Source of the DNA: Labilithrix sp.
Lineage (GTDB): Bacteria > Myxococcota_A > Polyangia > Polyangiales > Polyangiaceae
Direction of reading: 5' to 3'
Length of the DNA: 32,233 bases
Assembly (NCBI GenBank): GCA_044227045.1
Contig: JBGAFW010000028.1
Span: forward strand, 83,667-115,899
In this document: positions 8,345 to 32,233 of the stretch, in pieces
Numbering within the stretch: position 1 is the stretch's first letter
How the letters are laid out: the number at the start of each line of letters is the position of its first letter
Notes under the pieces: model-generated
Told to the model about the DNA's origin: nothing
Databases searched by the model: none
What the model saw: only the letters and a program-made list of their open reading frames with translations
Program-made: the position numbers and the translations under genes

Positions 8345-8381
8345 CTTCTGGCTCCTTACGCACCCGCGAGCGGACGAGGTC

Positions 8382-9707: not shown

Positions 9708-9733
9708 GGCCGAGCGGAGCGCGCGCCGGCGCT

Positions 9734-9765: not shown

Positions 9766-9769
9766 GTCG

Positions 9770-12801: not shown

Positions 12802-13568
12802 GCGAAAGCACGACCCTCGGAACACCGGACGCGCAGACCAAAGAAGTGAAGGTGCCCGAGCCTTATCGGAAGAACACCGCGCCCGACAAAGAGAAGACGA
12901 TCATCTCGATGGAGAACGTCACGAAGACCTACCTTCGTGGCAAAGAGCCGCTCACCGTCCTCGACGGTCTGTCGCTCGTGATCGAGCAGGGCGCGTTCGA
13001 AGCGCTGATGGGACCTTCGGGCTCCGGCAAATCGACGCTCCTCAATCTGATCGCGGGCCTCGATCGCCCCACCAGCGGCAAGGCGATGGTGGCCGGTCAT
13101 GACATCGGAAAGATGAGCGACGGCGAGCTCGCGAAGTTTCGCGCGCGGCACATCGGCTTCATCTTCCAGTCGTACAACCTGATGCCCGTGCTCACGGCGC
13201 TCGAGAACGTCGAGCTCCCGCTCCTCCTCACGAACCTCTCGAGCTCCGAGCGAAAGAAGCGCGCCGAGACCGCGCTTCGCGTCACCGGCCTCGAGGATCG
13301 CATGGGTCACTACCCGCGCCAGCTCTCGGGTGGTCAAGAGCAGCGCGTCGCGATCGCGCGCGCGATCGTCCACGATCCGACGATCCTCGTCTGCGACGAG
13401 CCCACCGGCGATCTCGATCGCAAGAGCGCCGACGACATCCTGCAGCTCCTCACGAAGCTCAACGTCGAGTTCAAGAAGACCATCCTGATGGTCACGCACG
13501 ATCCGGCGGCGGCCGAGCGCGCGACGATCACGCGTCACCTCAACAAGGGCAAGTTGGACGAAGCATGA
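12798..13568 (+). CDS. ABC transporter ATP-binding protein (MacB/LolD-type ATPase)
   Basis: Walker A GPSGSGKST, Q-loop, ABC signature LSGGQEQRVAIARA, Walker B ILVCDEPTGDLD, H-loop VTHD. GTG 12798 overlaps the upstream stop. An alternative start is ATG 12909 (MENVTKTY). Confidence 0.85.
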   Translation: MSESTTLGTPDAQTKEVKVPEPYRKNTAPDKEKTIISMENVTKTYLRGKEPLTVLDGLSLVIEQGAFEALMGPSGSGKSTLLNLIAGLDRPTSGKAMVAGHDIGKMSDGELAKFRARHIGFIFQSYNLMPVLTALENVELPLLLTNLSSSERKKRAETALRVTGLEDRMGHYPRQLSGGQEQRVAIARAIVHDPTILVCDEPTGDLDRKSADDILQLLTKLNVEFKKTILMVTHDPAAAERATITRHLNKGKLDEA

Positions 13569-14734: not shown

Positions 14735-14738
14735 GCGC

Positions 14739-15902: not shown

Positions 15903-15923
15903 ATCCAGCCCCCATCACAAATC

Positions 15924-15979
15924 GAAGCCCACCACCGCGCTTGCCCCCCAATGGGGTGATGCGCCCGGCGGTGGGCTTC
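15924..15979. terminator. Complex GC-rich stem-loop (GAAGCCCACCaCCGCGC...GCGCCCGGcGGTGGGCTTC with inner CCCCA-a-TGGGG hairpin) after the ABC operon, followed by TTCTGATCT
   Basis: Inverted repeats read directly. It is located 22 nt after permease stop 15902 and 18 nt before ATG 15997. Confidence 0.45.
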
Positions 15980-15996
15980 TGATCTACCCTGGGCTC

Positions 15997-17505: not shown

Positions 17506-17516
17506 AGGGGAAGGAC

Positions 17517-17576
17517 CGTCGCGTCCGCGCGACGATCCGCCGAAGGTGATGGACGAGGTGTCGCGTCCGCGCGACG
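17517..17576. promoter_or_regulatory. Two copies of an identical 17-nt palindromic element GTCGCGTCCGCGCGACG (6/7-bp arms, 4-nt spacer) 25 nt apart, upstream of the first VIT-vWA gene
   Basis: Direct plus inverted repeat read at 17517-17534 and 17560-17576. They sit in the 154-nt gap between stop 17505 and ATG 17660. They could be tandem terminator hairpins or paired operator sites. Confidence 0.35.
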
Positions 17577-17659
17577 CTTGCTTGCCAAAGATTGACGTGC
17601 GCGAGCGGTCTCGGCGAGACGGAGGCTTGGCATGACGATCGCTTGGCGCCGAGAGGCCC

Positions 17660-20600
17660 ATGACCAAGACGACGACGCGCGCAGTGCTCCTCCTCGTTCT
17701 CTTCTCTCTCCTCGTCGTCGCGCAAGGAGGGTGCGCGCACGGCAAAGAGGCGCCGCCGAAGCTCACCTCGCGCCCACCCGCGCTTGCGGAAGGCACGGAG
17801 GCGATCGACGTGGCGGTCGATTGGGACGCGCATCCGCAAAGCAGCAAGACCGCGGACGCCAAGATCTCGCTGACAGCCTCGGACGGGTCGGGCCTCGTGC
17901 TGAGGTCGATCGACGCGCGCGCCGTGCTCTATGGCCCGCTCGCGTTCACCGAGGTGCACCTCGTCTTCGCGAACCCCGAACCCGTGATGCGCGAGGGCAC
18001 GTTCGCGATCGCGCTGCCCGCCGGCGCCGCGGTGAGTCGCTTCGCGATGAAGCTCCCGCAAGGGTGGCAAGAAGGCGAAGTCGTCGAGCGGCAGTCGGCA
18101 CGCGCGACCTACGAGACGTTCCTGCGAAAGCGCGTCGACCCCGCGATGCTCGAGAAAGACACGGGCTCGAGCAACGTGTTCCGTGGACGCGTCTTCCCGA
18201 TCCTGCCGCGGCAAGAGAAGGAGATCGTCATCGCCTACACCCAGACCTTCACCGCGGCGTCCGAGCCGTATCGCTTGCCGCTCGTCGGGCTCCCCTCGGT
18301 CGAGCAGCTCGACATCCAGCTCTTCGTCCCGAGCACGAAGAAGGCCTTCGTCGTGCATCGAAATGGCGTCAGGCCCGATCATGACTTCGAGGTGTCGCTC
18401 GCGGGTACACCCGACGCCGTTCGAGGTGGCCGCTTCGCCGTCGTGCGCGTGTCGGATCCCGACGCCCGCCCCGCGACGTCGAGCGGAGCGCCGAGCGGCG
18501 CGATGCAAGGTGATCTCGCCGTGCTGATCGACTCGAGCGCGTCGCGCATCGGCACGTACGAGCGCGACGTCGCCGCGGTGACGCGCATCGTCGGGGCGCT
18601 ACACCCGAGTGCGATCAAGGTCGCGTGCTTCGACCAAGAGGTGGAGCCGATGGCCTCGCTCGCGGAGGCAGCGAGGCGGCGACCTGCCGGCGCGACCGAT
18701 CTCGAGCGAGGTCTTCGCTGGCTCAAGACGACCGGCGCGAAGCGCGCGATCGTCCTCACGGACGGCTCGATGACGACCTCACCGCTGCCACCTGCCGCGC
18801 TCGGCGCGATCGCGAAGGAGATCGGCCTCGATCGGATCGACGCGATCGCGACCGGTGGGGTCCGCGCCGACACGATCGCGCTGCGTGCGCTCGCGCTGGG
18901 CGGCACCGTGGTGGACGTGGAAGACGCGCCGGGCGACGTCGCGGTCGCCCTCAAGATGCCCCCAGGCAGGGTCGGTCGCGCGTCGTTCGAAGGCGCCGCG
19001 ACCGCGTGGCCTTCGTCGCTCGCGAAGGCAGGGGCGCGGCGTTCGTCGGCGCTCGCGTTCGTCGAGATCGCCGAAGACAAACCGCTCCGTGTCGTGATGG
19101 ATGGCAAAGGTGGCGCGCAGCCGAGAGACGTGACGCGCATAGACACCGCACCTGCGGCGTTGATCGAGCGCGCGGTCGCCGAGGCGAAGATCCGCGAGCT
19201 CGAGGACGAGCGCGCGACGACGACGACGGAGGCGCGCAAGACCGAGCTCGCACGCGAGATCGTGTCGCTCTCCGTTCGTCATCGCATCTTGACGGAGCTC
19301 ACCGCGATGCTCGTGCTCGAGACCGAGGCGGACTACAAACGCTTCGACATTCCACGCGAGGCGATGCGCGACATTCCGGTGGTCGGACCGCGCGGCGTCG
19401 AGATCGTTCCTCGGGGTGGTGGTCAGGTGGTGCTCCCGCCAAGCCAGAAGAGCGTCTCGCCGATGATCGACGCCATCCGCGCCGGCGACCGGACCGCCGA
19501 CACCGATCGCGACGGCATCCCGGACGCCGACGATCGCTGCCCGAACGAGCCGGAGACGTTCAACGGCTTCGAGGACGACGACGGGTGTCCGGATCGCGGC
19601 ACCGTCATCATCGAGGCGAACCAGATCCTCATCTTGCAGATGGTGCACTTCAAGGACGGCTCGGCGGAGATCCTTCCGGAGTCGCTCCCCATCGTCCAGG
19701 CGCTCGCCGACACGCTCCGCTTTCACCCCGAGTTCGATCTCGTCGCGATCATCGGCCACACCGACAACCGCGGCTCGCCCGACGTCAACCGCGAGCTCTC
19801 CCTCCGGCGAGCGATGGCCGTGCGCGCGGCGGTGGTGGCGCGCGGCGTCGAGCCGCGACGGCTCATCGCACGCGGTGTGGGCGGCGCGTTCCCGATCGAT
19901 CCGAAGAACGACGCGGAGGCCTTCGCTCGGAATCGACGCGTCGAGTTCAAGATCCTCGTCGCGGACGGGAGCGCGACCGGCGTCGAGGTCCCCGGGCTCG
20001 ATAGGGCGCTCAAGCCGTCTGGCAAAGAGCAGGAGAGCGTCATGCCCTCGATGACCGTTCGTCGCGGCAAGCCCGCGCCCGTCGCCCATGCGCTGAGCGG
20101 GAAGCTCGCCGCGATTGCGCAGCTGCTCGAGCAGAAGAAGGCCGATGACGCGCTCCATGTCGCCGAGACGTGGCTGAAGACGTCGCCCGACGACATGCTC
20201 GCCTGGACCGCGCGCGGCCAAGCGCTCGACGCGCTGAATCGATCACGCGAGGCGGCGCGATCGTTCGGCTCGATCCTCGAGCTCGCCTCACGTCCCGAGC
20301 AGCGCCGCGCGGCGGCCGGTTGGCTCGAGGCGCTCGCCGCGCGACACAAAGAGGCGGGCGAGCTCGCGATCGCGCAGTATCGACGTGCCCTCGAGGAGCG
20401 GCCGGAGCATCCATCCTCCTATCGGCTCCTCGCGTGGTCCCTCGTGCGCGGAGGACACATCGACGAGGCGCTCGCCACGACGCTCGATGCGCTCGACCAC
20501 GCGGCGAGCTTCGATCCACGACGCTTCCCGATGGCGGTGGAGGCGTTGAAGAGAGACGCAGGCGTGCTGGCCGTCGCCGCGGGAAAGAACAAGGCGCCGG

Positions 20601-21010
20601 CCGAGCGCGAGGCGATCCTGAAGCGAGCGCGGTTCGCCGGCGCGATCCCTTCGGACGGCTCGAAGGCGTCGACCACGCTGGCGCTCACGTGGGAGACCGA
20701 CGAGAGCGATCTCGACATCCATCTCGTCCCCTCGAAGAACGCCTCCGAGCCGGTCTCGGTCGCCATGACCGACATCCGCGCAGGCTACGGCCCCGAGGTG
20801 ATCACGCTCGAGCCCGATCAGGTAAAGAAGGGCTGGACCCTGGCCGTTCACCAGGTCCGGCGAGGTCCGCAGGGCTTCGCGTTCGGAAAGGTGGCGATCG
20901 CGAGCCACGATGGCCTCGGCAACCTCTCCGTGAGCGACCGCCCGTTCGTCATCATGAACGAGAACGCGGCCGTTTCTCTAGGGACGATCTCCGATCACAG
21001 CGGTCCGTAA
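17660..21010 (+). CDS. Giant secreted lipoprotein: VIT domain - von Willebrand factor A domain - thrombospondin-type-3 Ca-binding repeat - OmpA C-terminal-like peptidoglycan-binding domain - TPR region - YfaP/DUF2135-like C-terminal domain
   Basis: ATG 17660 with a GAGAGG SD. Signal peptide plus lipobox (VVAQGGC). VIT-like beta region at aa ~70-250. vWA with MIDAS DxSxS (DLAVLIDSSAS ... TDG). DTDRDGIPDADDRCPNEPETFNGFEDDDGCPD is a TSP3 repeat. ...IIGHTDNRGSPDVNRELSLRRAMAV...NRRVEFKI is an OmpA-C motif. TPR-like helical repeats at aa ~800-985. C-terminal ALTWETDESDLDIHLV...GKVAIASHDGLGNLSV...FVIMNENA is the YfaP/DUF2135-like tail. Confidence 0.85.
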   Translation: MTKTTTRAVLLLVLFSLLVVAQGGCAHGKEAPPKLTSRPPALAEGTEAIDVAVDWDAHPQSSKTADAKISLTASDGSGLVLRSIDARAVLYGPLAFTEVHLVFANPEPVMREGTFAIALPAGAAVSRFAMKLPQGWQEGEVVERQSARATYETFLRKRVDPAMLEKDTGSSNVFRGRVFPILPRQEKEIVIAYTQTFTAASEPYRLPLVGLPSVEQLDIQLFVPSTKKAFVVHRNGVRPDHDFEVSLAGTPDAVRGGRFAVVRVSDPDARPATSSGAPSGAMQGDLAVLIDSSASRIGTYERDVAAVTRIVGALHPSAIKVACFDQEVEPMASLAEAARRRPAGATDLERGLRWLKTTGAKRAIVLTDGSMTTSPLPPAALGAIAKEIGLDRIDAIATGGVRADTIALRALALGGTVVDVEDAPGDVAVALKMPPGRVGRASFEGAATAWPSSLAKAGARRSSALAFVEIAEDKPLRVVMDGKGGAQPRDVTRIDTAPAALIERAVAEAKIRELEDERATTTTEARKTELAREIVSLSVRHRILTELTAMLVLETEADYKRFDIPREAMRDIPVVGPRGVEIVPRGGGQVVLPPSQKSVSPMIDAIRAGDRTADTDRDGIPDADDRCPNEPETFNGFEDDDGCPDRGTVIIEANQILILQMVHFKDGSAEILPESLPIVQALADTLRFHPEFDLVAIIGHTDNRGSPDVNRELSLRRAMAVRAAVVARGVEPRRLIARGVGGAFPIDPKNDAEAFARNRRVEFKILVADGSATGVEVPGLDRALKPSGKEQESVMPSMTVRRGKPAPVAHALSGKLAAIAQLLEQKKADDALHVAETWLKTSPDDMLAWTARGQALDALNRSREAARSFGSILELASRPEQRRAAAGWLEALAARHKEAGELAIAQYRRALEERPEHPSSYRLLAWSLVRGGHIDEALATTLDALDHAASFDPRRFPMAVEALKRDAGVLAVAAGKNKAPAEREAILKRARFAGAIPSDGSKASTTLALTWETDESDLDIHLVPSKNASEPVSVAMTDIRAGYGPEVITLEPDQVKKGWTLAVHQVRRGPQGFAFGKVAIASHDGLGNLSVSDRPFVIMNENAAVSLGTISDHSGP

Positions 21011-21159
21011 CGCGATCTCCCTCGGGATCATCGAAAGGCTGACGGGAACGCGAGACGGGGGCGCCGCCCCCAACGGATCCGGCTTTCCAATCCCCGCGAG
21101 CATGTCTAACGTGCCTGTCCTCAACACGTTCGACCTACCGAAACAGGAGACAAGCAATC

Positions 21160-21747
21160 ATGGCTTTCACGCTGCCGAACCTGCCCTACGCGAAGGACGC
21201 CCTCGCGCCTCACATCTCTGCCGAGACGCTCGACTTTCACCACGGCAAGCATCATGCGGCTTACGTGAACAAGTTGAACGAGCTCTTGGCCGGCAAGCCC
21301 GAGGCAGAGAAGTCCCTCGAAGACGTCATCAAGGGCTCCGAGGTCGGAACGCCCGTGTTCAACAACGCGGCGCAGATCTGGAACCACACCTTCTACTGGA
21401 GCTCGATGAAGCCGAAGGGCGGCGGTCAGCCCACCGGCGATCTCCTCGCGGCGATCAACCGTGACTTCGGCTCGTTCGACAAGTTCAAGGAGGAGTTCAC
21501 CAACGCCGGCGTCACGCAGTTCGGCTCGGGCTGGGCATGGCTCGTCGAGAAGGACGGCAAGCTCGCCGTCACGAAGACTCCGAACGCCGACCTCCCGATG
21601 AAGCACGGCCAGAAGGCCCTCCTCACGATGGACGTGTGGGAGCATGCATACTACATCGATTTCCGCAACGCCCGCCCGAAGTACATCGAGACGTTCCTCA
21701 GCAGCCTCGTGAACTGGGACTTCGCGCTCGAGAACCTCAAGAAGTAA
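21160..21747 (+). CDS. sodB: Fe-type superoxide dismutase (Fe/Mn SOD family)
   Basis: MAFTLPNLPYAKDALAPHISAETLDFHHGKHHAAYVNKLN...AQIWNHTFYW...DVWEHAYYIDFRNARPKYIETF is a classic Fe/Mn-SOD fold with metal ligands H27, H74 (NHTFYW), D and H in DVWEHAYY. The AQ(I/V)WNHTFYW pattern favours the Fe type. AGGAG SD lies 10 nt upstream of ATG. Confidence 0.95.
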   Translation: MAFTLPNLPYAKDALAPHISAETLDFHHGKHHAAYVNKLNELLAGKPEAEKSLEDVIKGSEVGTPVFNNAAQIWNHTFYWSSMKPKGGGQPTGDLLAAINRDFGSFDKFKEEFTNAGVTQFGSGWAWLVEKDGKLAVTKTPNADLPMKHGQKALLTMDVWEHAYYIDFRNARPKYIETFLSSLVNWDFALENLKK

Positions 21748-21950: not shown

Positions 21951-24900
21951 TCAGAGCGCGCCGAGATCGAGCACGGTGCCCTCGTTCATGATCGTGAAGG
22001 GGCGCGGATCGATCGTGACGTTGCCCTTGCCGTCGTGGCGGACGACATGGACGACGCCGAGCACGTCGCCGCCTGTCCCTTTACGCTGGAGCCGAACGAC
22101 CGCGTTCAGCGCGCTCACGCGCTTGACGTCGGTGGCAAGATCGAGCGCCTCTGGGCCGAAGCCATCGAGCGCTTGGCTCGTCGTCGCGCCGTTGCGCTCC
22201 CCTTTCGCGTCGAACGCCTGGACGTCGATGTCGCTCGTGTCGGTCTCCCATGTCGCGACCGCTTGCACGGTCGATCGATCGCGGCTTCGCGCGTGGAGGA
22301 AGATCGCCTTCGACTCGATCATGTCGCGCTTGGCGGGCTCGGCCTGCGCCCAGGCCGCGGCGGCGAGGCCGAGATCGGTCGCCAAGAGATCGCTCACGCT
22401 GGCGAAGCGGAGCTCGTAGCGTCGCTTCATGCCGTTCGCGGCCGCCTCGAACGCGGCCTCCGGCTTGCCTGCGCGAAGGAGCTCGAGGCAGAGCAAGTGA
22501 TGCGACGAAGGTTGGTCGGGACGCTCGCTCGCCGCGCGACGGAGGAGATCGATCGCGATCGGATCTCCCGGACGCACCCGCGCGATCCGCACCGCCGCGG
22601 CGCGAAGCATCTCCGCGCGCTCCGGGTAGAGATCGGCGAGCGATCCATAGGCGCGCGTCGCGCGGTCTTTGTCGCCGGCCGCTTCGTATGCTTGCCCGAG
22701 CGCGACGAGGGCGATCGCGCTCGTGCTCCCCTCCCGCGCGCGAAGCTCCGTGGCCGCGTCGATCGCAGCCTTCGCGTTCGGCGCCGTCGTCGACGGTGAG
22801 GCGTCGCCGCCGAGGGACGCTGGCACGAAGGCCATCACGCGCCGATAGTCCATCGACCACGGAAAGAGCCTCTCCGCGGGCGACGGCGGCGCAGCCCCGG
22901 CAGACAGACGGAACGGCGACGGCGACCAGATCGTGGACGCGCTGACCGGCAAGTGCGCGGCCGGCGGAGACGCTTCGTCCTCGGCCGTGATCGGCGCGAG
23001 CATCAGCGGGTAGACCACCGTGATGTTGGCTCCCTCCGGAGCCGGGAACATGAGGTGGCGGAACACGTCGACGACGCACTCGATCGTCTTCTTGTCGGAG
23101 ATGTCCGAGCCGGCGTCCATCGCGGTCCCGACGGAGCCATCGCGCGTGACCACGAACTTCACGCTCACGCGTCCGGAGAATTCGCCGCGTCGGCGGAGGC
23201 CGTCTTCGTAACATGCGCGGAGGGCTCCCCAACGTTGCCGCACGATCCGCTGGATCACCTCCGGCGGAACTCGACCCGACACCGTCGTCGTCGCTTGCCG
23301 CATCGCCGGCGCCTTGGTCACGTGGCCCCGCGCCGGCGCGCTCGGCGTGGAAGGACTCGGAGGTGGCGGCGGAGGCGGCGCGGCCGACGACGACGCCTCT
23401 CGGCTCCGCATCCGCGCGACATCGGAGTCGTTCTCGAGCACGATGAGCGACGTGAACGGGCTCGCGAGCTTGTTCTTGCGCGCGATCGCGACGATCTCGC
23501 TCTTCCACGCGTCCTTCGTCGCAGCTTGTTCCCCACGGGCGATCAAGGCGTCGAGCTTTGCGACGGCCGACACGTGCTCGAGCATCGGCGAGGGCGCCGC
23601 GGTCACGGCGCTCGCGTCGATCGAATGCACCTTCCCGCCGATGTGTGCACGAAGAGGCGCGGAGCTCGGCATGCGCGCGAGCACGACGCGCGTCTCGTCG
23701 GGCGAGGCCGCCTCGAGCGCGGCGGTGGACGTCCACGTCGCGCCTTCGACGCTCACGGGCACGCGCGCCGCGACGCGCGAGCGGACACGCGCCTGGACCG
23801 TCTCGGCCGAGAGCCGCGGCGCGTCGTCGATCACCACGCCGTCGCGCGCGAAGATCGCGCTCGTCACGAGCGGGCGATAGAGGCGCAGGTCCGCGAGCGC
23901 GGAGGTCCCGAGCACATCGACGCGCTCGACCCCCGCCTTCGCGAGCTCGCCCATCGCGACGCGAAGCCGTGCTCCGTCGGCGGTCGGGCCTACACCGCCA
24001 CCGACGAAGATGACGCGCGTGGCGCGGATGCGCTTCGCCTCGACGCGCGCGGCCTCGAGGCCTCGCTCGAGATCGGCGACGCCGAGCGCGCCTCGAGCGG
24101 CGAGCGCCTTCGGCAGCGCCGCAGAGAGCGACGCGAGATCGCCGTCGTAGAGCCGCTCGGTCGATTGATCGTACGCGACGACCGCGGCGCGCGTGCGGCC
24201 CGACGATGACGACGCGAGCGCGCCGACGAGGCTCGCGGCCGCCTCGAGGGTTCCTTCCTTCGCGGCGCTCGTCTCGACGACGAACACGACCGCGCCTTCG
24301 AGCGGATCGGGCTCCTTCGCGACGAACGTGGGCACGCGCAGCGCGACGAGCTCACCCGCGCGCGCGACCTCGTTTCCGGTAGACCGCGCGGCGACGAAGC
24401 TCACGTCCGCCGTGGGCCGATCGTCTTCGAGGTGGATCGAGATCGGCTCCGTCGCGCCCTCGATGACGGAGACATCGAGCTTGTGCACCGCAGGAAGACC
24501 GCGAAGCGGAAACCACACCGGGGCGTCGGCGCCGCCGACCTCGGAGATGTACTCGATCGCGATCTCCTTCGCGCTCGCCCCGTCGATCGGGAACACGCGC
24601 GCCGAGATCTCGCGCTCGCGCCGTTGCTCGACGAGGAGCGGATCACGACGGCGATGAAGGATCTCTTCGTAGGTCTCACGCGCTGCGCCGATCTCGGCGG
24701 CGTCGGCCTCGCGCCACTCGCCCGAGATCTTCATCGCGAGCCGCGACACGGACGAGCGCGGCGGGAGCGTCATCCGGAAGCGCCCCTCGAGCGTCGACGG
24801 CGACGTGTTCCAGAACGTCGCATGCACCGCCGTTCGCGCGAGCGGACCGTGAACGTGGATGTTCACCGTGAGCTCCGCGAGCCGGATCGGCGTGCTGTCG

Positions 24901-25106
24901 TCCGCGATGAGCGATAGCGGCGCGCTCGCCGCTGGCGCCGAGCTCTGCGGGCCCGCGCTCGTGCCCCCGACCGGGATGACCGCGAACGCTCCGCGCGGTG
25001 ACGCGCCCGCGCTCGGAGTGGTGACGGCCGGGCTGCACGCCGCCTGGGCGATCAAAGCGGCGAACGCGATCGCCGAACGCGAGCCAAAGACGATACGTGG
25101 ACGCAC
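21951..25106 (-). CDS. Giant secreted protein, paralogue of 17660..21010: VIT - vWA - Pro-rich linker - AgmX/PglI C-terminal-like (TonB-C-like) domain - TPR region - YfaP/DUF2135-like C-terminal domain
   Basis: GTG 25106 with a GAGGTGA SD. Signal peptide MRPRIVFGSRSAIAFAALIAQAAC. VIT-like N-terminal region. vWA MIDAS (AVVFVVETSAA...). PPPPPPSPSTPSAP linker. Then EVIQRIVRQRWGALRACYEDG...VKFVVTRDGSVG...ECVVDVFRHLMFP, homologous to the kinase tail at 3321-3596. C-terminal VATWETDTSDIDVQAF...GVVHVVRHDGKGNVTI...FTIMNEGT aligns with the C-terminus of the first VIT protein. Confidence 0.85.
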   Translation of the reverse strand: MRPRIVFGSRSAIAFAALIAQAACSPAVTTPSAGASPRGAFAVIPVGGTSAGPQSSAPAASAPLSLIADDSTPIRLAELTVNIHVHGPLARTAVHATFWNTSPSTLEGRFRMTLPPRSSVSRLAMKISGEWREADAAEIGAARETYEEILHRRRDPLLVEQRREREISARVFPIDGASAKEIAIEYISEVGGADAPVWFPLRGLPAVHKLDVSVIEGATEPISIHLEDDRPTADVSFVAARSTGNEVARAGELVALRVPTFVAKEPDPLEGAVVFVVETSAAKEGTLEAAASLVGALASSSSGRTRAAVVAYDQSTERLYDGDLASLSAALPKALAARGALGVADLERGLEAARVEAKRIRATRVIFVGGGVGPTADGARLRVAMGELAKAGVERVDVLGTSALADLRLYRPLVTSAIFARDGVVIDDAPRLSAETVQARVRSRVAARVPVSVEGATWTSTAALEAASPDETRVVLARMPSSAPLRAHIGGKVHSIDASAVTAAPSPMLEHVSAVAKLDALIARGEQAATKDAWKSEIVAIARKNKLASPFTSLIVLENDSDVARMRSREASSSAAPPPPPPPSPSTPSAPARGHVTKAPAMRQATTTVSGRVPPEVIQRIVRQRWGALRACYEDGLRRRGEFSGRVSVKFVVTRDGSVGTAMDAGSDISDKKTIECVVDVFRHLMFPAPEGANITVVYPLMLAPITAEDEASPPAAHLPVSASTIWSPSPFRLSAGAAPPSPAERLFPWSMDYRRVMAFVPASLGGDASPSTTAPNAKAAIDAATELRAREGSTSAIALVALGQAYEAAGDKDRATRAYGSLADLYPERAEMLRAAAVRIARVRPGDPIAIDLLRRAASERPDQPSSHHLLCLELLRAGKPEAAFEAAANGMKRRYELRFASVSDLLATDLGLAAAAWAQAEPAKRDMIESKAIFLHARSRDRSTVQAVATWETDTSDIDVQAFDAKGERNGATTSQALDGFGPEALDLATDVKRVSALNAVVRLQRKGTGGDVLGVVHVVRHDGKGNVTIDPRPFTIMNEGTVLDLGAL

Positions 25107-25997: not shown

Positions 25998-26705
25998 ATG
26001 AAGCGCACCGAACGCCTGTTTGCCCTTGCGGAGCACCTCCGCGCGCGACGCACCGGGGTGACCGCCGAAGCCCTCGCCGAGCGCTTCGGCGTCACCGTCC
26101 GAACGATCTACCGCGACCTCGACACGCTCCGCGCCGCCGATCTGCCGCTCGCCGCCGAGCGCGGCCGTGGCGGCGGGTATGCGCTCGACAAGAGCTACAG
26201 CCTCCCGCCCGTCAACTTCACCGCGCGCGAAGCCGCGTTGCTCGTCGCGCTCGGACGATGGGCGAGCGAGATGCGCCTCCTGCCGTTCACCGACACGCTC
26301 GATCGCGCGCTCGACAAAGTGCGCGGCGCCCTCTCCGCGTCGGCGCAGCGCGAGCTCACCGGCAGGTTGAAGGAGCTCCAGTTCGCGGGCGTACCGCAGC
26401 TTCCGGTCGCGAAGGCGGTGCGCCAAGCCGTCGAGCGCGCGTGGTTCGAGCAGCAGCCGCTTCGCATCACCTACCGGAGCGGCAACTACGAGCGCACGAC
26501 GCGCGACATCCGCATCACCTCTGTGTTCATGGAGCGCACCGAGACACGCCTCAACGCGGTCGACCTGCAGAAGAACGAAGAGCGTCAGTTCCGCCTCGAC
26601 CGCGTCGAGAAGGCGGAGGTGCTCGGCGTCAGCGCGCCGTCGGGATCGCCGTCCGGCGCGTCCACGACGCCGGGGCCTACGAGCTCAACATCGACAGACG
26701 CGTAG
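25998..26705 (+). CDS. YafY-family transcriptional regulator: N-terminal DeoR-type HTH + WYL ligand-sensing domain
   Basis: MKRTERLFALAEHLRARRTGVTAEALAERFGVTVRTIYRDLDTLRAADLPLAAERGRGGGYAL is the canonical YafY/PafBC-type HTH N-terminus. The later region LRITYRSGNYERTTRDIRITSVFMERTETRLNAVDLQKNEERQFRLDRVEKAEVL is WYL-like. The low-complexity Ser/Thr/Pro C-terminal tail overlaps the convergent gene by 29 nt. Confidence 0.75.
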   Translation: MKRTERLFALAEHLRARRTGVTAEALAERFGVTVRTIYRDLDTLRAADLPLAAERGRGGGYALDKSYSLPPVNFTAREAALLVALGRWASEMRLLPFTDTLDRALDKVRGALSASAQRELTGRLKELQFAGVPQLPVAKAVRQAVERAWFEQQPLRITYRSGNYERTTRDIRITSVFMERTETRLNAVDLQKNEERQFRLDRVEKAEVLGVSAPSGSPSGASTTPGPTSSTSTDA

Positions 26706-28323
26706 CGACCGCGAAGGCGACGCCGATCGTGAGCGGCGTCATGTATCCGTTGATGCCTTGGTCACCCCAGATCTGCACGATGCAGATGGCGACACTGCCG
26801 AGCGCCGTCAGCGCCGCGCTTCGTTCGAGCGGCGTCCTCGCCACGCGATACCCACGCAGCGCGAGCGTCCCCGAGATCGGAAAGAGCATCCAGAGCATCG
26901 TGAAGCCGATGACGCCGCCGAGCGACCAGAGCCACAAGACGCCGTTGTGCGCGATGAGGCGGTAGTTCACGAACACGTCGGTGAGGTCGACGGGCGGGTT
27001 GTCCGGCGAATACTGGTACTCGAAGCCAAAGCCGGTCGTGAGCAGCGGGCTCTGCCGAAGCGTGTAGATGAGGTTCTCGTTCTCGATGTCGCGTGACTGC
27101 GCCGACAGGTCCTTCTGATCGAGCACGGACATGACGAGCTTCGCCGGCTTGAGCAGCGTCGACGGCGAGTTGATCTCGGAGCCGATCAGCACGTAGCCGA
27201 TCATCAGCGGCACGGCGAGGACGAGCGCGGCGGTGACGCGACGCTTTCGCCTGCTCGGCCTCAGCGCGAGGTAGATGATCGCCGGCGCGATCGAGAGGCT
27301 GACGAACGCGAGGCGGCGGTTGTTCAGCACGATCGCGAACATGATGAGCGCCGAGCAACCGATCGCGCGCACGATCGATCGCTTCGTGCGCTGCTCGAAG
27401 GCGTGCGTGACGACGATCAAGATCGAGACGACGAAGAGCACCGTGTCCGAGTGCGTGGTGCACCACTCCGGAAGGCCAGGCCGATCGGTGATGCCCATCG
27501 GCATGAACACGAAGAAGTAGATGTAGATGCAAAAGACGCTGCGAAGGAGCGCGGTGATGACGAAGATCGACCCGATCGCGGCGAGGTCCTCTGGGACGCG
27601 CAGCGCATACAAGAAGAGGAGCGCGATGAGCGGCAGCTGCACCATGTGCAGGATCTGCCGGACCACACCCTCGATCGTGCCGCCGTGGATGAGGCCCCAC
27701 GCGCTCAGCACGACGATGGTGCCGAGGAACGTGAAGAGGACGTTCTTGGCGAAGCGCGGCGGAGGGATGTACTCGGCCGCCTTCTTTCCCCAGACGGCGC
27801 GATACAAGAGCCCCGCGGTCACGAAGAAGAAGACGGGCAGCGAGGCGCCCGGCATGCCGCTCCACTCCTTGATCGTGCCGTAGTAAGCGACGGCGGCAGG
27901 CCAGAGGTACGTGTCCCAATAGCCCTCGCCTTGCAGCTTGAGCATCGCCTCGCTGAACGGCTCGATGAAGAGCGAGAGCACGAGGAAGATGCGGATCGAG
28001 CGCTGCATCTTGAAGCGCGCCATCGCCCAGAAGAGGAGCGGTCCCCAGACGATCACGAACGCCGTGTCGAAGCGGAACGTGTTCGACCACACGTTCGGCG
28101 CGTCGAAGGTGGGCGCGGCCGCGAAGTACGCGAAGAGCGACGCGGCGAAGACGCCGAGGATGATGCGAATCGTCGGCTTCCTGAAATCGTCCTCGAGGAT
28201 CGCGCTGTCGTCGTAGACGACCTCTTCCCCGTCACCCGCGTTCGTATAGTGGCTGAGCTGCTGCTTCACGCGCTCGTTCAGTGCGGCGCGTTGGTTCGGA
28301 GCGAGATGAGGCCTCAGATTCAT
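26677..28323 (-). CDS. Polytopic inner-membrane protein with O-antigen-ligase/Wzy_C-like domain (putative glycan ligase/polymerase)
   Basis: Preferred start is ATG 28323 (MNLRPHL...) with AGGGA 8 nt upstream. The ORF track extends it to 28380. It has ≥10 predicted TM helices. The C-terminal segment TGFGFEYQY...RLIAHNGVLWLWSLGGVIGF resembles the Wzy_C 'G.G.g...aHN.ylq.l.E.G..G' signature. Confidence 0.5.
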   Translation of the reverse strand: MNLRPHLAPNQRAALNERVKQQLSHYTNAGDGEEVVYDDSAILEDDFRKPTIRIILGVFAASLFAYFAAAPTFDAPNVWSNTFRFDTAFVIVWGPLLFWAMARFKMQRSIRIFLVLSLFIEPFSEAMLKLQGEGYWDTYLWPAAVAYYGTIKEWSGMPGASLPVFFFVTAGLLYRAVWGKKAAEYIPPPRFAKNVLFTFLGTIVVLSAWGLIHGGTIEGVVRQILHMVQLPLIALLFLYALRVPEDLAAIGSIFVITALLRSVFCIYIYFFVFMPMGITDRPGLPEWCTTHSDTVLFVVSILIVVTHAFEQRTKRSIVRAIGCSALIMFAIVLNNRRLAFVSLSIAPAIIYLALRPSRRKRRVTAALVLAVPLMIGYVLIGSEINSPSTLLKPAKLVMSVLDQKDLSAQSRDIENENLIYTLRQSPLLTTGFGFEYQYSPDNPPVDLTDVFVNYRLIAHNGVLWLWSLGGVIGFTMLWMLFPISGTLALRGYRVARTPLERSAALTALGSVAICIVQIWGDQGINGYMTPLTIGVAFAVATRLSMLSS

Positions 28324-28502
28324 CGCGGACGGGTCCCTGCTTTGGAGGCAAGGGGAGCCACCGAGAGAGGCTATCAGCACCGAGACAAAGTGTTCAGCGT
28401 CTCCTGACCCTCGCTACGAAAACCATCTAGGATAGGAGACCGCACGTCCGACATGAGGCCTTTGCCCTGAGCTCCAAAGAGTCTGCGATCAGCGGGCCGA
28501 TC

Positions 28503-30491
28503 GTGTTTGGCGAGGTCGATCGCCAGCTCTTCGGTTGGTACCACGCTCCTACGCGCCCCTCACGGGACGGCGGCGTCGTGCTGTGCAATCCGTTCGGCTA
28601 CGAGTCGATGTGCCTGCATCGCGTCTACCGGACGCTCGCCGAGCGCCTCGCCTCGATCGGCATCGCGACGCTGCGCTTCGACTACCACGGCACCGGAGAC
28701 TCCTCGGGCAGCGACCACGACGAGGATCGCCTCCGCTGCTGGCTCGAGAGCGTCTACGTCGCCATGGCCGAGCTGAAGCGACGCGCGGAGGTGTCCGAGA
28801 TCAGCCTCTTCGGGATCCGCTGGGGCGCCACGCTCGCCGCGCTCGCCGGCATCGACGCGCAGCGCATCGGCGGGATGACGAACGCGTTCGGCGCGAAGAG
28901 CATGGCGCTCTGGAGCCCGTACCTCACGGGGCGCGCGTTCCTCAAAGAGATGCGGATGATGCAGACCGCCGGCGCGGAGCAGGCGTTCGCTGCGGGGGAG
29001 GATCGCGGGGTGTCGCCGTCGGTGCGCTCGGCCAACCTCGAAGGCACGCCGCTCGAGAAGGACGAAGAGGCGATTGGCTACGTGCTCTCCGCGCAGACGG
29101 TCGAGGCGATCTCGATGATCGATCTCCGCGCGAACAAGATCGCTCCCGCGCCGCGCGTGCTCCTGCTCGGGCGCGACGATCTCCCGGAGGACGATCGCTT
29201 CGCGCGTCATATCGGCGCGGCGGGCGCGACCGTGACCGCGCTTCGCTCCGAAGGCTACGCGGCGATGATGCAAGACGCGTATCTCTCGGCCGTCCCGACG
29301 ACCGCGTTCGACCACGTCGTCGAGTTCTTCACCAACGTGCACAGGGCGGTGCGCGAACAAGACGACGACACCTCGACCGATCGCCCCACGCTCACCGACT
29401 TCTCGCGCGAAGGCCCGCACCTCATCGTCGACATCACGGCGCAGAGCGAGGCGGTCGAGGCGATCTCGCAGCGCTTTGGATTTCCGTCCGCGCCTCCGCC
29501 GCCGACAGGCGCGCGCACGCACGATGGGCGTGCGCGGCGCGTCCGCGAAGAGGTGGTGATGTTCGGCCCGACGAGCCAGCTCGTGGGCGTCCTCTCCGAG
29601 CCCACCGATCGCGAGGCGCTGAAGCACCCGAACGACGCCGTCCTCTTCCTCAACATCGGCTCGAACCACCGCGTCGGATCGAACCGCATGTACGTGAAGA
29701 TGGCGCGGGCGCTCGCGTCACGTGGCACCACCTCGCTTCGCTTCGACATCGCCGGCATCGGCGACAGCGCCGCGATCGACGGCAAGGAGAATCGCCTCTA
29801 CGCGAAGGAGGCCGTCTACGACGTGCAGGCGGCGATGAAGGAGATCACGGCGCTCCGCAACATCCATCGCTTCTATTTGATCGGGCTCTGCTCCGGCGCC
29901 TACCTCGCGTTCAAGACGGCGTTCGCCGACGAGCGCGTCGCCGGGATGGTCCTCATCAACACGCAGACCTTCCAGTGGAAGGAGGGCGACACGCTCCAGG
30001 TGTCGCTGCGAAAGAACTACCGCTCGACGCGCTTCTACACGACCGAGATGCGAAACCTCGAGACGTGGAAGCGCGTGCTACGCGGCGAGGTGAACGCGCG
30101 TGGCATCGCCGGCACGCTGAGCCAGCGCGCGTTCGAGCGCGTCATCCGCGAAGCCGAGGCGACGATCGCGCGCGTGCGGCATGGCCGGCTCGAGATCGAC
30201 GAGGTCGCCGTCGAGATGAAGGAGATCTTGAAGCGCGGCACCGAGGCGCTCCTCATCTTCGGCGCGAACGACGGCGGGCTCGACAAGATGGAGACGCATC
30301 TCGGGCCCGACGCGAAGAAGGTCGCGAAGTACCCCAACTTCCGCCTCGAGATCGTCGAGGGCAGCGATCACACGTTCACTCCCGTCTGGTCGCAAGGCTG
30401 GCTCGAGAACCTCGTCATCGCGACGATCGAGACCTGGCGCGAAGCTACGGAGCGGAAGCAGGGCGCAGGATCCAGCCACTCCCGGCCGTGA
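28503..30491 (+). CDS. Fused tandem alpha/beta-hydrolase-fold protein (two homologous ~300-aa hydrolase modules; nucleophile elbow GIRWG in module 1, GLCSG in module 2)
   Basis: GTG 28503. Module 1 (VVLCNPFGYESMCLHRVYRTLAERLASIGIATLRFDYHGTGDSSGS ... ISLFGIRWGATLAALAG) and module 2 (AVLFLNIGSNHRVGSNRMYVKMARALASRGTTSLRFDIAGIGDSAA ... FYLIGLCSGAYLAFKTA) align position by position. This is an intragenic duplication. Confidence 0.65.
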   Translation: MFGEVDRQLFGWYHAPTRPSRDGGVVLCNPFGYESMCLHRVYRTLAERLASIGIATLRFDYHGTGDSSGSDHDEDRLRCWLESVYVAMAELKRRAEVSEISLFGIRWGATLAALAGIDAQRIGGMTNAFGAKSMALWSPYLTGRAFLKEMRMMQTAGAEQAFAAGEDRGVSPSVRSANLEGTPLEKDEEAIGYVLSAQTVEAISMIDLRANKIAPAPRVLLLGRDDLPEDDRFARHIGAAGATVTALRSEGYAAMMQDAYLSAVPTTAFDHVVEFFTNVHRAVREQDDDTSTDRPTLTDFSREGPHLIVDITAQSEAVEAISQRFGFPSAPPPPTGARTHDGRARRVREEVVMFGPTSQLVGVLSEPTDREALKHPNDAVLFLNIGSNHRVGSNRMYVKMARALASRGTTSLRFDIAGIGDSAAIDGKENRLYAKEAVYDVQAAMKEITALRNIHRFYLIGLCSGAYLAFKTAFADERVAGMVLINTQTFQWKEGDTLQVSLRKNYRSTRFYTTEMRNLETWKRVLRGEVNARGIAGTLSQRAFERVIREAEATIARVRHGRLEIDEVAVEMKEILKRGTEALLIFGANDGGLDKMETHLGPDAKKVAKYPNFRLEIVEGSDHTFTPVWSQGWLENLVIATIETWREATERKQGAGSSHSRP

Positions 30492-30873
30492 AGCCGATGT
30501 GCGGGTAGTAGTCGACCGCCGCGGGCGCCGCGAAGAGGAACACCGTCGCCTGCCCGCCCTCGATCTGGGTCCTCCGCACGAGCTCGCGCCCGACGCCGTG
30601 GCGCTGCCACGAGAGCCGAACCGCCATGTCCGAGAGGTAGGTCGCGAACGAGAAGTCGCTCAGGCTGCGGGCGATGCCGACGAGCACGTTCGCCTTTGGC
30701 TCCCACGCCGTGATCACCAGGTTCGCGCCCTCGAGCATCTTCTTCATGCGCGGGCGATCGTCGACCGGCCGCCGGAGCCCGAGCGTGGAGTCCTTGTAGA
30801 GCTCGATCATGACATCGAGATCGATGTCATTGCCGACGCGATAGTCGAGCGTCTGCGGGTCCTGGGTCGTCAT
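30445..30873 (-). CDS. GNAT-family N-acetyltransferase
   Basis: ATG 30873 overlaps the upstream cupin stop (ATGA). Acetyl-CoA binding motif QRHGVGRELV (Q/R-x-x-G-x-G/A) and a beta-strand/helix pattern typical of GNAT. The 3' end overlaps convergent gene 28503..30491 by 47 nt. Confidence 0.65.
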   Translation of the reverse strand: MTTQDPQTLDYRVGNDIDLDVMIELYKDSTLGLRRPVDDRPRMKKMLEGANLVITAWEPKANVLVGIARSLSDFSFATYLSDMAVRLSWQRHGVGRELVRRTQIEGGQATVFLFAAPAAVDYYPHIGFTAGSGWILRPASAP

Positions 30874-31292
30874 GAGCCGGACCGCCCGAGGATCCGGCGC
30901 TTCAGCGCCGAAGCGACGCGGCGCGGAAACGAGCGCTTAACCGCCCGAAGAATGAACACCTTCTTCACGTATTTCGGCACCTCCCAGTCGGCGACGAGCC
31001 CGCACGGAAAGAAGACGACGGTGCCGGGCGTGAGCACGTGCGTCTTCTTCCCATCGTTCACGTGGGCTTCGCCCTCGAGGATGTGCACCACCTCGTCGAC
31101 CTCGTAGATGTACTTGAACTTGCCCGCGGTGCACTCCCACAGGCCGCTGGTCATCGTCCCGTCCAGGCTCTCCGACAGGGTGACCGCGCGCGCCTCGGGG
31201 TTTCCGTCCTTGATCCAGGTAGGGTCGATGGGCTGCGCGCTCAAGTCCTTCCGCGTATCCGCGAAGGTGGTGATGAAGAAGGGTGTGCTCAT
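30870..31292 (-). CDS. Cupin-domain protein (small conserved beta-barrel, DUF861/EutQ-like)
   Basis: Preferred start is ATG 31292 (MSTPFFITTFAD...) with AGGGA 8 nt upstream. The ORF track extends to TTG 31328. Cupin motifs GLWECTAGKFKYIYEVDEVVHILEGEAHV and TPGTVVFFPCG are present. Confidence 0.6.
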   Translation of the reverse strand: MSTPFFITTFADTRKDLSAQPIDPTWIKDGNPEARAVTLSESLDGTMTSGLWECTAGKFKYIYEVDEVVHILEGEAHVNDGKKTHVLTPGTVVFFPCGLVADWEVPKYVKKVFILRAVKRSFPRRVASALKRRILGRSGS

Positions 31293-31454
31293 GGTGTCCC
31301 TGAATGGATGACGCCCGCCATTGGACAAAGCTTACACGAAGGAAAATGAGGGCGTGCGAAGGGGAAAACGCCGTTCGTGAGCCGTGTTTGCTCGAGCCTA
31401 CGACTCGTCCGCTGGCCCTAGTACCGCTCGAACGATTCCGTTAGTCTCGCGCGC

Positions 31455-32233
31455 GTGATTAGCCTCGGTCCTCTCCGTGCAGGTAGTGAGCTCGTAAAAC
31501 GCGCACGCGCGATCGCAAGTGAGGTCGCCGCAAAGCATGCGGCCGACGTCGACTCGAAATCGCGCTTCCCGATCGAAGCGATCAACGCGATGAAGGAGGC
31601 CAAGCTCCTCTCCGCGGCGGTGCCGAAGGAGTTCGGCGGCGCAGGCTCGGACATGCACGAGCTCTCGGCGTGCTGCGTCGAGCTCGCGCAAGGATGCGCC
31701 GCGAGCGGGATGGTCTTCGCGATGCACATCATCCAGGTCGCGTGCATCGCGCGCCACGCGCAGTCGTCACCGTACTTCCAGAAGTACCTTCGCGAGATCG
31801 TCGACAAGCAGATCCTCATCGCGTCCGTCACCTCCGAGGTCGGAGTGTGGGGCGACACGCGATCGAGCATCTGCGCCCTCCAGACCAACCCCGACGGCAA
31901 GTGCCGCCTCGACAAGGACGCCACCACCGTCTCGTACGGCGCCCACGCCGAAGACTTGCTCGTCACCTGCCGCCGCAACCCCGACGCGCCGCCGAGCGAT
32001 CAGATCCTCGTCTTGCTTCGCAAGGGTGACTTCACGCTCGAGCAGACGACGAACTGGGACACGATGGGCATGCGCGGAACGTGCAGCCCCGGCTTCAAGC
32101 TGAGCGCGCCGAGCTTCTCGCCCGATCAGGTCGTCCCCGGATCGTTCGCGGAGTCGTCCGCGCAGACGATGGTCTCGTACTCGCACATCCTCTGGGGAGG
32201 CGTCTGGCTCGGCATCGCGGCCGACGCGGTCTC
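31455..32233 (+). CDS. Acyl-CoA dehydrogenase family protein, 5' portion (runs off the window end)
   Basis: Open frame from after TAG 31419-31421 to the window end. Translation ...ELVKRARAIASEVAAKHAADVDSKSRFPIEAINAMKEAKLLSAAVPKEFGGAGSDMHELSACCVELAQGCAASGMVFAMHI...TSEVGVWGDTRSS...QTTNWDTMGMRGTCSPGFKL matches ACAD N-terminal alpha and middle beta domains (FP.e....l.e.Gl.g..vPeeyGG.G). GTG 31455 is the first candidate start. The ORF track missed it because it is truncated. Confidence 0.75.
   Translation, partial: MISLGPLRAGSELVKRARAIASEVAAKHAADVDSKSRFPIEAINAMKEAKLLSAAVPKEFGGAGSDMHELSACCVELAQGCAASGMVFAMHIIQVACIARHAQSSPYFQKYLREIVDKQILIASVTSEVGVWGDTRSSICALQTNPDGKCRLDKDATTVSYGAHAEDLLVTCRRNPDAPPSDQILVLLRKGDFTLEQTTNWDTMGMRGTCSPGFKLSAPSFSPDQVVPGSFAESSAQTMVSYSHILWGGVWLGIAADAV

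Follow-up and report, generated by a model that had tools for sequence, protein, structure and literature searches.

A fused double alpha/beta-hydrolase encoded beside a Wzy-like membrane protein in Labilithrix sp. belongs to a widespread family linked to carrier-protein cassettes and is a candidate (amino)acyl transferase

The locus

A 32,233 nt stretch of DNA from Labilithrix sp. (contig JBGAFW010000028.1, positions 83,667 to 115,899, in assembly GCA_044227045.1), referred to here as the window, contains a gene for a fused double alpha/beta-hydrolase (hereafter the hydrolase) that is transcribed divergently from a gene for a Wzy-like membrane protein. A preliminary description of this DNA had proposed that the two might form a lipid- or glycan-modifying pair of novel arrangement, comparable to the hydrolase genes found beside O-antigen-ligase-like proteins in exosortase loci. 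The features of the pair are as follows.

26677..28323, minus strand: membrane protein resembling Wzy-type polymerases of polysaccharide repeat units; 548 aa if translated from the ATG at 28323
28324..28502, no strand: divergent intergenic region between the Wzy-like gene and the hydrolase gene, 179 bp, from the start-codon positions
28503..30491, plus strand: fused double alpha/beta-hydrolase, 662 aa, predicted cytoplasmic (Pfam, NCBIfam, BLASTP and structure model)
28503..29357, plus strand: hydrolase module 1, residues 1–285, hydr2_PEP-like, without a nucleophile
29358..29537, plus strand: low-confidence inter-module linker, residues 286–345
29538..30467, plus strand: hydrolase module 2, residues 346–655, hydr1_PEP-like, with a triad

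Both open reading frames (ORFs) have a coding-type G+C content at third codon positions (GC3 0.90; window G+C 66%). The shared region, earlier given as 180 bp, is 179 bp long with the ATG at 28323, while an alternative in-frame GTG at 28380 would give a Wzy-like product of 567 aa and reduce the gap to the hydrolase gene to 122 bp. The GTG start of the hydrolase at 28503 is supported by the finding that 109 of 118 family members extend to its first residue. A scan of the sequence between 28324 and 28502 gave no match to a sigma-70 promoter or terminator consensus.

Two homologous modules in a single polypeptide

Comparison of residues 1–330 of the hydrolase with residues 331–662 using BLASTP aligned the two halves with 32% identity over 171 aa (E=7e-14), pairing LRFDYHGTGDS with LRFDIAGIGDS and the nucleophile elbow GIRWG with GLCSG. 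This split alignment bears out the earlier reading of the protein as two homologous alpha/beta-hydrolase modules. The best family for module 1 was TIGR03101 (98.4 bits, residues 8–208 on profile positions 11–194 of 266) and that for module 2 was TIGR03100 (132.3 bits, residues 349–642 on profile positions 3–272 of 274), with neither reaching the cut-off (202.75 and 168.45, respectively). Stand-alone relatives of module 1 scored only 74–86 bits against TIGR03101. Module 2 was also above the cut-off for Pfam Abhydrolase_6, Abhydrolase_1 and Hydrolase_4, and a match to the dienelactone hydrolase family (PF01738) over residues 431–483 (17.6 bits, E=0.003) fell below the gathering cut-off of 21.

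An AlphaFold2 (AF2) model of the hydrolase, built from a 60-sequence alignment, had a predicted local distance difference test (pLDDT) score of 85.2 and a predicted TM score (pTM) of 0.88. Because the pTM is high, the model suggests that the two modules pack as a fixed pseudo-heterodimer. The linker is poorly conserved in alignment A1 and has a pLDDT of 45–64 over residues 290–340. Dienelactone hydrolases and feruloyl esterases were on top among the structural matches, which also include DcsB and the myristoyl-acyl carrier protein (ACP) thioesterase LuxD, trans-acting thioesterases of this fold. No transmembrane (TM) segment or signal peptide was detected by hydropathy in the hydrolase or in the cassette enzymes described below, and the hydrolase is predicted to be cytoplasmic.

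Active-site residues of the two modules

Residue conservation was determined in a profile alignment of 259 proteins, with module 2 positions counted in the members that have the module. The Cys of the GLCSG elbow in module 2 (C463, codon 29889–29891) was found in 252/253 members, H623 (30369–30371) in 243/245 and either D or E at position 590 (30270–30272) in 239/244. In the AF2 model, C463 follows the strand formed by residues 456–462, D590 follows strand 581–587 and H623 follows strand 613–618. These are the canonical sites of the nucleophile, acid and His, and the three residues form a conserved triad in module 2, so the Cys pointed out earlier at this elbow has a matching Asp and His.

The equivalent positions in module 1, taken from the strands of the model, hold R106, D225 and Y252 (29256–29258). 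The nucleophile and the His of a triad are replaced by R106 and Y252 and, judged from these residues, module 1 cannot be a conventional hydrolase. At position 106 (codon 28818–28820), 252 of the 259 proteins have R, four have H, two have Q and one has G; Ser or Cys was never found. R106 and the C463-S464 pair are both invariant in 119 close relatives. C28 (28584–28586) is present in 247/259 members, R224 (29172–29174) in 246 and Y252 in 224 with F in a further 23, and H14 (28542–28544) is likewise conserved. The preliminary description had taken module 1 to be a half without a nucleophile and a likely pseudo-enzyme. The former stands, but because R106 is retained so widely and C28, R224 and Y252 are also conserved, module 1 appears to be a selected, repurposed site rather than a decaying pseudo-enzyme. 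Instead of serving purely as a binding pocket, it might contain a second active site of a non-canonical kind. In the model, C28 is on the loop after strand 3, which is the oxyanion-hole position in this fold, and should adjoin the Arg106 elbow.

Distribution and domain fusions of the hydrolase family

A word-indexed search returned 823 homologues of the hydrolase, and the best 120, from Labilithrix, Polyangiaceae, Ideonella and others, were nearly all full-length fused proteins of approximately 600 aa. In an exhaustive search of the N-terminal half against representatives clustered at 50% identity, 562 clusters were recovered at E≤1e-30. Nearly all of the best 150 representatives were again about 600 aa long, i.e. 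a single fused ORF rather than two separate genes. In a scan limited to one genome per species, a relative was present in at least 550 genomes, including members of the Polyangia, Burkholderiales, Alpha- and Gammaproteobacteria, Gemmatimonadota and Chloroflexota, and with this number of genomes and clusters the fusion is not a novel arrangement. The same fused ORF is present in the RefSeq isolates Azospirillum lipoferum 4B, Mycetohabitans rhizoxinica and Burkholderia gladioli. When each half was used in a tblastn search of plasmids, the same 59 records were found with both, as fused genes only. A frameshift artefact joining two genes was ruled out because more than 250 independent homologues, RefSeq isolates among them, have the same single fused ORF; GC3 is also uniform.

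Some members carry additional domains. A 1103 aa protein encoded by plasmid p3 of Rhizobium sp. NLR16a (WP_210632725.1, L012 7363–10674) carries a Wzx-type Polysacc_synt_3 domain at its N terminus, ahead of the double hydrolase, while P0191 (1019 aa) has an N-terminal Acetyltransf_6 (FemAB-like) domain and P0064 (862 aa) includes an S-adenosylmethionine (SAM) methyltransferase. In P0121 (1184 aa), the whole Arg/Cys unit is tandemly duplicated and the R, C, R, C pattern is kept.

A carrier-protein cassette accompanies the hydrolase

To the right of the hydrolase gene, the window includes three further genes.

30445..30873, minus strand: GNAT acetyltransferase, convergent with the hydrolase gene (Pfam Acetyltransf_10/7/1)
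30870..31328, minus strand: EutQ-like cupin (Pfam Cupin_3, 69.8 bits)
31455..32233, plus strand: acyl-CoA dehydrogenase (ACAD)-family flavoenzyme, 5′ part, cut by the window end (Acyl-CoA_dh_N, 58.9 bits)

The 3′ ends of the hydrolase and GNAT genes overlap by 47 bp (30445–30491), and a 4 bp overlap of the GNAT and cupin genes suggests co-translation. The candidate start of the ACAD gene is the GTG at 31455. Contig L010, which is collinear with window positions 27058–32233 (97.4% nucleotide identity) and extends 4.8 kb further, was used as a proxy for the sequence beyond the right edge. In L010, the Wzy-like gene (minus strand) is followed by the hydrolase (plus), GNAT (minus) and cupin (minus) genes, and then by genes for the ACAD-like enzyme, a ligase resembling an aminoacyl-tRNA synthetase (aaRS), a DUF1839 protein, an AcpS-type phosphopantetheinyl transferase (PPTase), a carrier protein and a GH2-like protein. 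The L010 ligase passed the cut-off of the amino acid-[acyl-carrier-protein] ligase equivalog NF005479 (403 bits, cut-off 357), and the carrier protein passed that of NF005480 (108 bits, cut-off 72) and matched DltC weakly (E=6e-6). The ACAD-family protein of the window is 57% identical to its counterpart in the equivalent operon of contig L006. The cassette, which the preliminary description overlooked, thus begins at the window's right edge with the ACAD gene.

The neighbours of the hydrolase were counted by a homology test in 43 loci of relatives with at least 9 kb of upstream sequence. ACP, ACAD and amino acid:carrier protein ligase (aa:CP ligase) genes were each found in 34/43 loci, GH2-like genes in 30, DUF1839 genes in 28 and PPTase genes in 24. 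Wzy homologues were found in five and Wzx homologues in four, though the test is insensitive for these families, which diverge fast. Set against the 34 loci with ACP, ACAD and ligase, the five with Wzy do not support the pair of Wzy and hydrolase as a functional unit. Most commonly the genes were ordered ACP-ACAD-ligase-DUF1839-GH2-hydrolase, all on one strand and often with the stop codon of one overlapping the start codon of the next, and the hydrolase is the usual last gene. The same operon is seen in the PGAP annotation of A. lipoferum 4B, Rhizobium sp. NLR16a and M. rhizoxinica. A minimal variant comprises only the ligase, ACAD, PPTase, ACP and hydrolase genes and, as DUF1839 and GH2 are missing, the hydrolase is the sole candidate off-loading enzyme there.

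The adjacency seen most often was that of the GH2-like and hydrolase genes (55/80 loci), which usually overlap by a few bases (e.g. 7464–10004 and 10001–11917 in L006). The GH2-like protein is predicted to be cytoplasmic, and its Pfam matches are only to N-terminal sugar-binding and Ig-like domains, so that it may act in binding or as a scaffold and not as a hydrolase. The GNAT gene has the same layout in L010, and a homologue was found near the hydrolase in 10/80 loci. The EutQ-like cupin is a recurrent neighbour of the cassette: it lies between the hydrolase and the PPTase and Wzy genes in L006, L007, L008, L014 and L015, and cupin genes are also present in the hydrolase loci of Shinella and Roseateles.

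In several genomes, the hydrolase is found amongst polysaccharide genes, with other loaders. In Shinella sp. WSC3-e, the fused gene follows a flippase gene inside a glycosyltransferase cluster and is itself followed by genes for an ACP, an AMP-binding ligase, a type III pyridoxal phosphate (PLP)-dependent enzyme, an ATP-grasp protein and a cupin. The fused gene of Roseateles sp. XES5 has flippase and glycosyltransferase genes around it, and asnB, an ACP gene and a gene for an adenylate-forming enzyme are nearby. The B. gladioli gene is located between a flippase gene and Wza/Wzc/Wzy genes, and in the Labilithrix-like clade the cassette has Wzx on one side and Wzy on the other. The constant partner of the hydrolase is a carrier protein together with its loader, and the type of loader varies. 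In L009, the region 3′ of the hydrolase (14749–17599) includes a set resembling those for ribosomally synthesized and post-translationally modified peptides (two PqqD-family genes and genes for a radical SAM enzyme, a ScmC-like protein and a 65-aa ORF), which is probably unrelated to the cassette.

The Wzy-like protein and the divergent junction

The Wzy-like protein was above the gathering cut-off for Pfam Wzy_C (PF04932; 42.8 bits against 31.7, residues 343–495) and has approximately 10–11 TM-like hydrophobic segments in a simple hydropathy scan, in agreement with its earlier description as a Wzy_C membrane protein. It also matched NCBIfam NF041870 (Wzy_EPS) over profile positions 35–482 of 486, with 242.6 bits against a cut-off of 670. 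NF041870 is the equivalog for a Myxococcus-type exopolysaccharide (EPS) repeat-unit polymerase, and these scores indicate that the Wzy-like protein is a homologue rather than an equivalog of Wzy_EPS. It did not match TIGR03097 (PEP_O_lig_1) at E≤1. The 548-aa product is 100% identical to database protein P0260, and the 276 homologues, which are nearly all from Labilithrix/Myxococcales, are 60–76% identical to it. From these matches, the protein appears to be confined to Labilithrix-like Myxococcota and to be unusually well conserved there.

The divergent junction was seen only in the window's own lineage, i.e. in the window and L010. The closest other genomes (L006, L007, L008, L014 and L015; 60–64% identity) share a different order, in which a Wzx gene (minus strand) is followed by ACP, ACAD, ligase, DUF1839, GH2 and hydrolase genes (plus) and, further on, by cupin (minus), PPTase (plus), Wzy (plus), WYL (minus) and NrtR genes. 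In these genomes, the hydrolase gene ends the operon and Wzy is 2–3 kb downstream on the same strand. The window retains the VIT/OmpA-SOD-NrtR-WYL-Wzy synteny (SOD, superoxide dismutase), while the hydrolase has been displaced from the operon end and is now divergent from Wzy; in L010, the PPTase is an AcpS-type gene inside the operon. Because the closest other genomes have the hydrolase at the operon end and a co-directional Wzy downstream, the divergent layout is a lineage-specific local rearrangement, ordinary in itself.

The regulator gene on the other side of Wzy is the following.

25998..26705, plus strand: HTH/WYL regulator, convergent with the Wzy-like gene (Pfam HTH_11 and WYL)

Wzy-WYL-NrtR synteny was also found in all five of the closest other genomes. 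The position of the regulator beside Wzy is conserved across the Labilithrix-like clade, while a functional link between the two would be speculative. The 3′ ends of the two convergent genes overlap by 29 bp (26677–26705).

Comparison with known systems

TIGR03100 and TIGR03101 are the exosortase A system-associated hydrolases 1 and 2, which NCBIfam lists as 'hypothetical equivalogs' with no assigned function. By the family descriptions, the two reportedly always form a pair, whose neighbours are an ACP, the AMP-forming ligase TIGR03098 and the PLP decarboxylase TIGR03099. The fused Shinella member resembles them in having ACP, AMP-ligase and PLP-enzyme partners. In contrast to that pair, the two modules described here are joined in a single polypeptide, with the hydrolase 2-like module first, score below both cut-offs and have no exosortase/PEP-CTERM context that we could find; an aa:CP ligase of the aaRS-like type, and not an ANL ligase, usually serves as the loader. 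The comparison covers profile scores, gene layout and context. No exosortase was matched by Pfam among the 24 window ORFs scanned, as had been remarked earlier, and in seven relatives and six annotated replicons there was none among the genes called up to 10 kb away. Membership of an exosortase A system was rejected given these neighbourhoods, the scores below cut-off for TIGR03100 and TIGR03101 and the unmatched TIGR03097. Of the earlier analogy, the families proposed for the two halves are indeed the best ones and the likeness is apt at the level of how the system may work, but the proteins do not belong to the exosortase system. On sequence, the hydrolase is best described as a relative of the hydrolase 1/2 pair that is fused, has Cys and Arg at its elbows and is linked to carrier proteins.

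A search with the PLP enzyme of Shinella also found cassettes in polysaccharide clusters of Sinorhizobium meliloti pSymB (L097 6487–10203) and Aureimonas pAU20a (L098 5288–11154) that include AMP-ligase and PLP-decarboxylase genes with exosortase A names assigned by PGAP. O-antigen-ligase-family genes are present in both but no exosortase or hydrolase gene is nearby, and conserved hypothetical proteins of approximately 290 aa with no Pfam match flank the cassettes. The cassette so named seems to be broader than the exosortase link of its name.

The loader is better known. The aaRS-like aa:CP ligases were reportedly described in 2010, and work on the ligase and its carrier protein is said to have been done by Mocibob et al. 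in 2010 and 2013. Characterized homologues load Gly/Ala-type amino acids. The ligase and carrier protein of L010 both fall within these families by the NF005479 and NF005480 cut-offs. According to a 2022 review, it is still unknown why these carrier proteins are charged with amino acids (PMC9437257). The operon shows a Dlt/Alm-like logic, we propose, in which an adenylating enzyme loads a carrier protein and a transferase moves the amino acid to a surface glycopolymer. DltA/DltC act in the D-alanylation of teichoic acids and AlmE/AlmF/AlmG in the addition of glycine to the lipid A of Vibrio cholerae. Several components differ from those systems. A homologue of class II aaRSs takes the place of the ANL enzyme as loader, the candidate transferase has a Cys alpha/beta fold where Dlt has an MBOAT protein (DltB) and Alm a lipid A acyltransferase homologue (AlmG), and the ACAD-like enzyme and the GH2-like protein are extra.

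A second parallel is butirosin biosynthesis, in which a papain-like Cys enzyme (BtrH/BtrI-type) moves an ACP-tethered aminoacyl group to a sugar. We propose that here, too, ACP-tethered aminoacyl chemistry may end on a carbohydrate. The DUF1839 protein of the operon is papain-like and in the same superfamily as BtrH_N (PMC10318531). The alternative cassette of Shinella, with its PLP decarboxylase-type enzyme, has a BtrK-like logic. Unlike butirosin, which is an aminoglycoside, the setting here is the assembly of polysaccharides, and BtrH has no detectable homology to the hydrolase.

Proposed function and alternatives

We propose, with a probability of about 0.5, that the hydrolase is a cytoplasmic Cys acyl-enzyme that accepts an (amino)acyl group from the thioester of a carrier protein and probably hands it on to the precursor of a polysaccharide. 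It would be a candidate for the missing step that explains what the carrier-protein ligases do. The aa:[ACP] ligase would load a small amino acid onto the phosphopantetheine arm of the carrier protein, and the ACAD-like flavoenzyme may then modify the tethered group. Cys463 would attack the (amino)acyl-S-phosphopantetheine thioester to give an acyl-S-enzyme, with Cys instead of Ser preserving the group-transfer potential. The group would then go to an acceptor, most likely the sugar of a lipid-linked repeat unit at the cytoplasmic face, before flipping by Wzx and polymerization by Wzy. The Arg/Tyr pocket of module 1 may bind an anionic handle, either the phosphate of phosphopantetheine or the undecaprenyl-pyrophosphate of the acceptor, in a non-catalytic role. 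In the window's lineage, the neighbouring Wzy-like protein would polymerize the decorated repeat unit and would not be an obligatory partner of the hydrolase. The fully specified version, in which the hydrolase off-loads the aa:CP-ligase pathway via a Cys463 thioester to an undecaprenyl-pyrophosphate-linked sugar at the Wzx flippase while the module 1 pocket holds the pyrophosphate or phosphopantetheine, is tentative and we doubt that all of it will hold.

The proposal draws on the conservation of the triad and the Arg and on their placement after the canonical strands of a confident model, on the co-occurrence of ACP, ACAD and ligase in 34/43 loci and the second loader type (AMP-ligase or adenylate-forming) in Shinella and Roseateles, and on the fusions to Wzx-type and FemAB-like domains in a protein with neither a TM segment nor a signal peptide. 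Several points weigh against it. In 6/43 loci (e.g. Ideonella) the hydrolase has no cassette gene within 10 kb, the core operon has no glycosyltransferase gene, and many loci lack polysaccharide genes by the homology test, insensitive as it is for Wzy and Wzx. The acyl group and the acceptor named above are those that seem most likely, and the role suggested for module 1 follows from the identity of its residues. The literature searched gave no biochemical or genetic data on any member of the hydrolase family and, Mocibob et al. 2010 being outside it, no paper on the family or on the function of the operon. In loci with DUF1839, that protein is an equally plausible transferase, and the hydrolase could then have an editing or release role. 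DUF1839 has a papain-like fold and a C-(T/S)-H triad, and a glycan-related role has been proposed for it from genomic context (PMC10318531).

The main rival to a transferase is a simple thioesterase, in which module 2 hydrolyses the (modified) aminoacyl-S-carrier protein and either frees a small molecule or proofreads mis-loading like a type II thioesterase. The tight linkage of the hydrolase to an ACP and its loader, the presence of DcsB and LuxD among the structural matches and a core operon with neither glycosyltransferase nor membrane protein would all fit such a role. We nevertheless consider it unlikely, as an invariant Cys (252/253) would be unusual in a purely hydrolytic enzyme and neither the conserved second module nor the fusions to Wzx flippase or FemAB-like domains and the repeated placing in polysaccharide clusters would be explained. 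Thioesterases of the alpha/beta-hydrolase fold are not known to use a nucleophile other than Ser. The enzyme could instead be a glycan esterase or deacylase that removes an O-acyl or aminoacyl group, or cleaves a lactone in the manner of dienelactone hydrolase, with the carrier genes serving another step. Dienelactone hydrolase is itself a Cys-His-Asp enzyme of the alpha/beta fold, the weak Pfam match to that family spans the elbow, dienelactone hydrolases and feruloyl esterases head the structural matches, and the gene is translationally coupled to that of the GH2-like protein in many loci. The hydrolase scores below the gathering threshold of that family, and dienelactone hydrolase has no fused second module without a nucleophile. 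The minimal cassette without GH2 and the constancy of an ACP and its loader, whichever type is present, would remain unexplained, and the hydrolase is predicted to be cytoplasmic while mature polysaccharide is outside the cell; we regard this role as improbable.

The stand-alone pair of the preliminary description, with a shared divergent promoter and the hydrolase as a fused version of the exosortase A hydrolases 1 and 2 acting with an O-antigen-ligase-like protein, takes its appeal from the adjacent, divergent genes in the window and L010, from the best-matching families and from the O-antigen-ligase-family genes near the exosortase A-type ligase/decarboxylase cassettes of S. meliloti and Aureimonas. 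It is weakened by the synteny data, as only 5/43 loci have a Wzy homologue in the vicinity of the hydrolase and the closest other genomes have the two genes co-directional with cupin and PPTase genes between them. Since, in addition, the Wzy-like protein resembles the Wzy_EPS polymerase and does not match TIGR03097, both hydrolase halves are below the family cut-offs and none of the relatives inspected has an exosortase within 10 kb, the pair seems very improbable. Least probable of all, and by our estimate remote, is a PhaC-like polymerase, in which the Cys-Asp-His module would polymerize carrier-tethered (amino- or hydroxy-)acyl units to an oligo- or polyester/amide chain and the catalytically silent module 1 would correspond to the second subunit of a polyhydroxyalkanoate (PHA) synthase dimer. 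PHA synthases such as PhaC share the alpha/beta fold, the G-x-C-x-G nucleophile, the Cys-His-Asp triad and the use of thioester substrates; the modules pack as a defined pseudo-dimer in the model, and the ACAD-like enzyme could turn a tethered amino acid into a different monomer. No similarity of the hydrolase to PhaC was detected, and PhaC has no fused, nucleophile-less module.

Other features of the window

No glycosyltransferase was found in Pfam scans of the window ORFs. Two very large VIT-domain proteins are encoded at 17660–21010 (plus strand) and 21951–25106 (minus strand), either side of an Fe/Mn superoxide dismutase gene (21043–21747). One has OmpA and tetratricopeptide repeat (TPR) domains and the other has weak VWA and TPR matches; the synteny from these genes to Wzy, described above, is kept in the Labilithrix-like relatives L006, L007 and L008. 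A MacB-type export operon (11416–15902, plus strand) comprises genes for an HlyD-family adaptor, an ABC ATPase and two FtsX-family permeases, and is followed by a gene for a 502-aa protein with no Pfam match (15997–17505). A 242-aa ORF (6195–6923, minus strand) has a marginal match to the Pfam 'Bubble protein' domain (24.1 bits, cut-off 23, E=4.4e-5), which could be a chance hit. That domain is known from a fungal secreted protein, and would be unexpected in a myxobacterium-like genome.

Implications

The hydrolase family is distinctive in mechanism and, although widespread, unstudied. Both its Cys triad and the Arg of the dead elbow are near-invariant, it is found in hundreds of genomes from at least five phyla, and time and again its members lie within the machinery of polysaccharide assembly or are fused to it. 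It provides a handle on the open question of the aaRS-like carrier-protein ligases, and members are present in the culturable and genetically tractable Azospirillum, Rhizobium, Burkholderia, Cupriavidus and Mycetohabitans. If the hydrolase is a transferase, it would join the aa:CP ligases, the DUF1839 and GH2-like proteins and the exosortase A hydrolases 1 and 2 in one pathway for the decoration of surface polysaccharides. This would amount to a tRNA-independent route by which an aaRS homologue is used to decorate Wzx/Wzy-dependent polysaccharides with aminoacyl groups, and would assign a function to the exosortase A hydrolase 1/2 pair.

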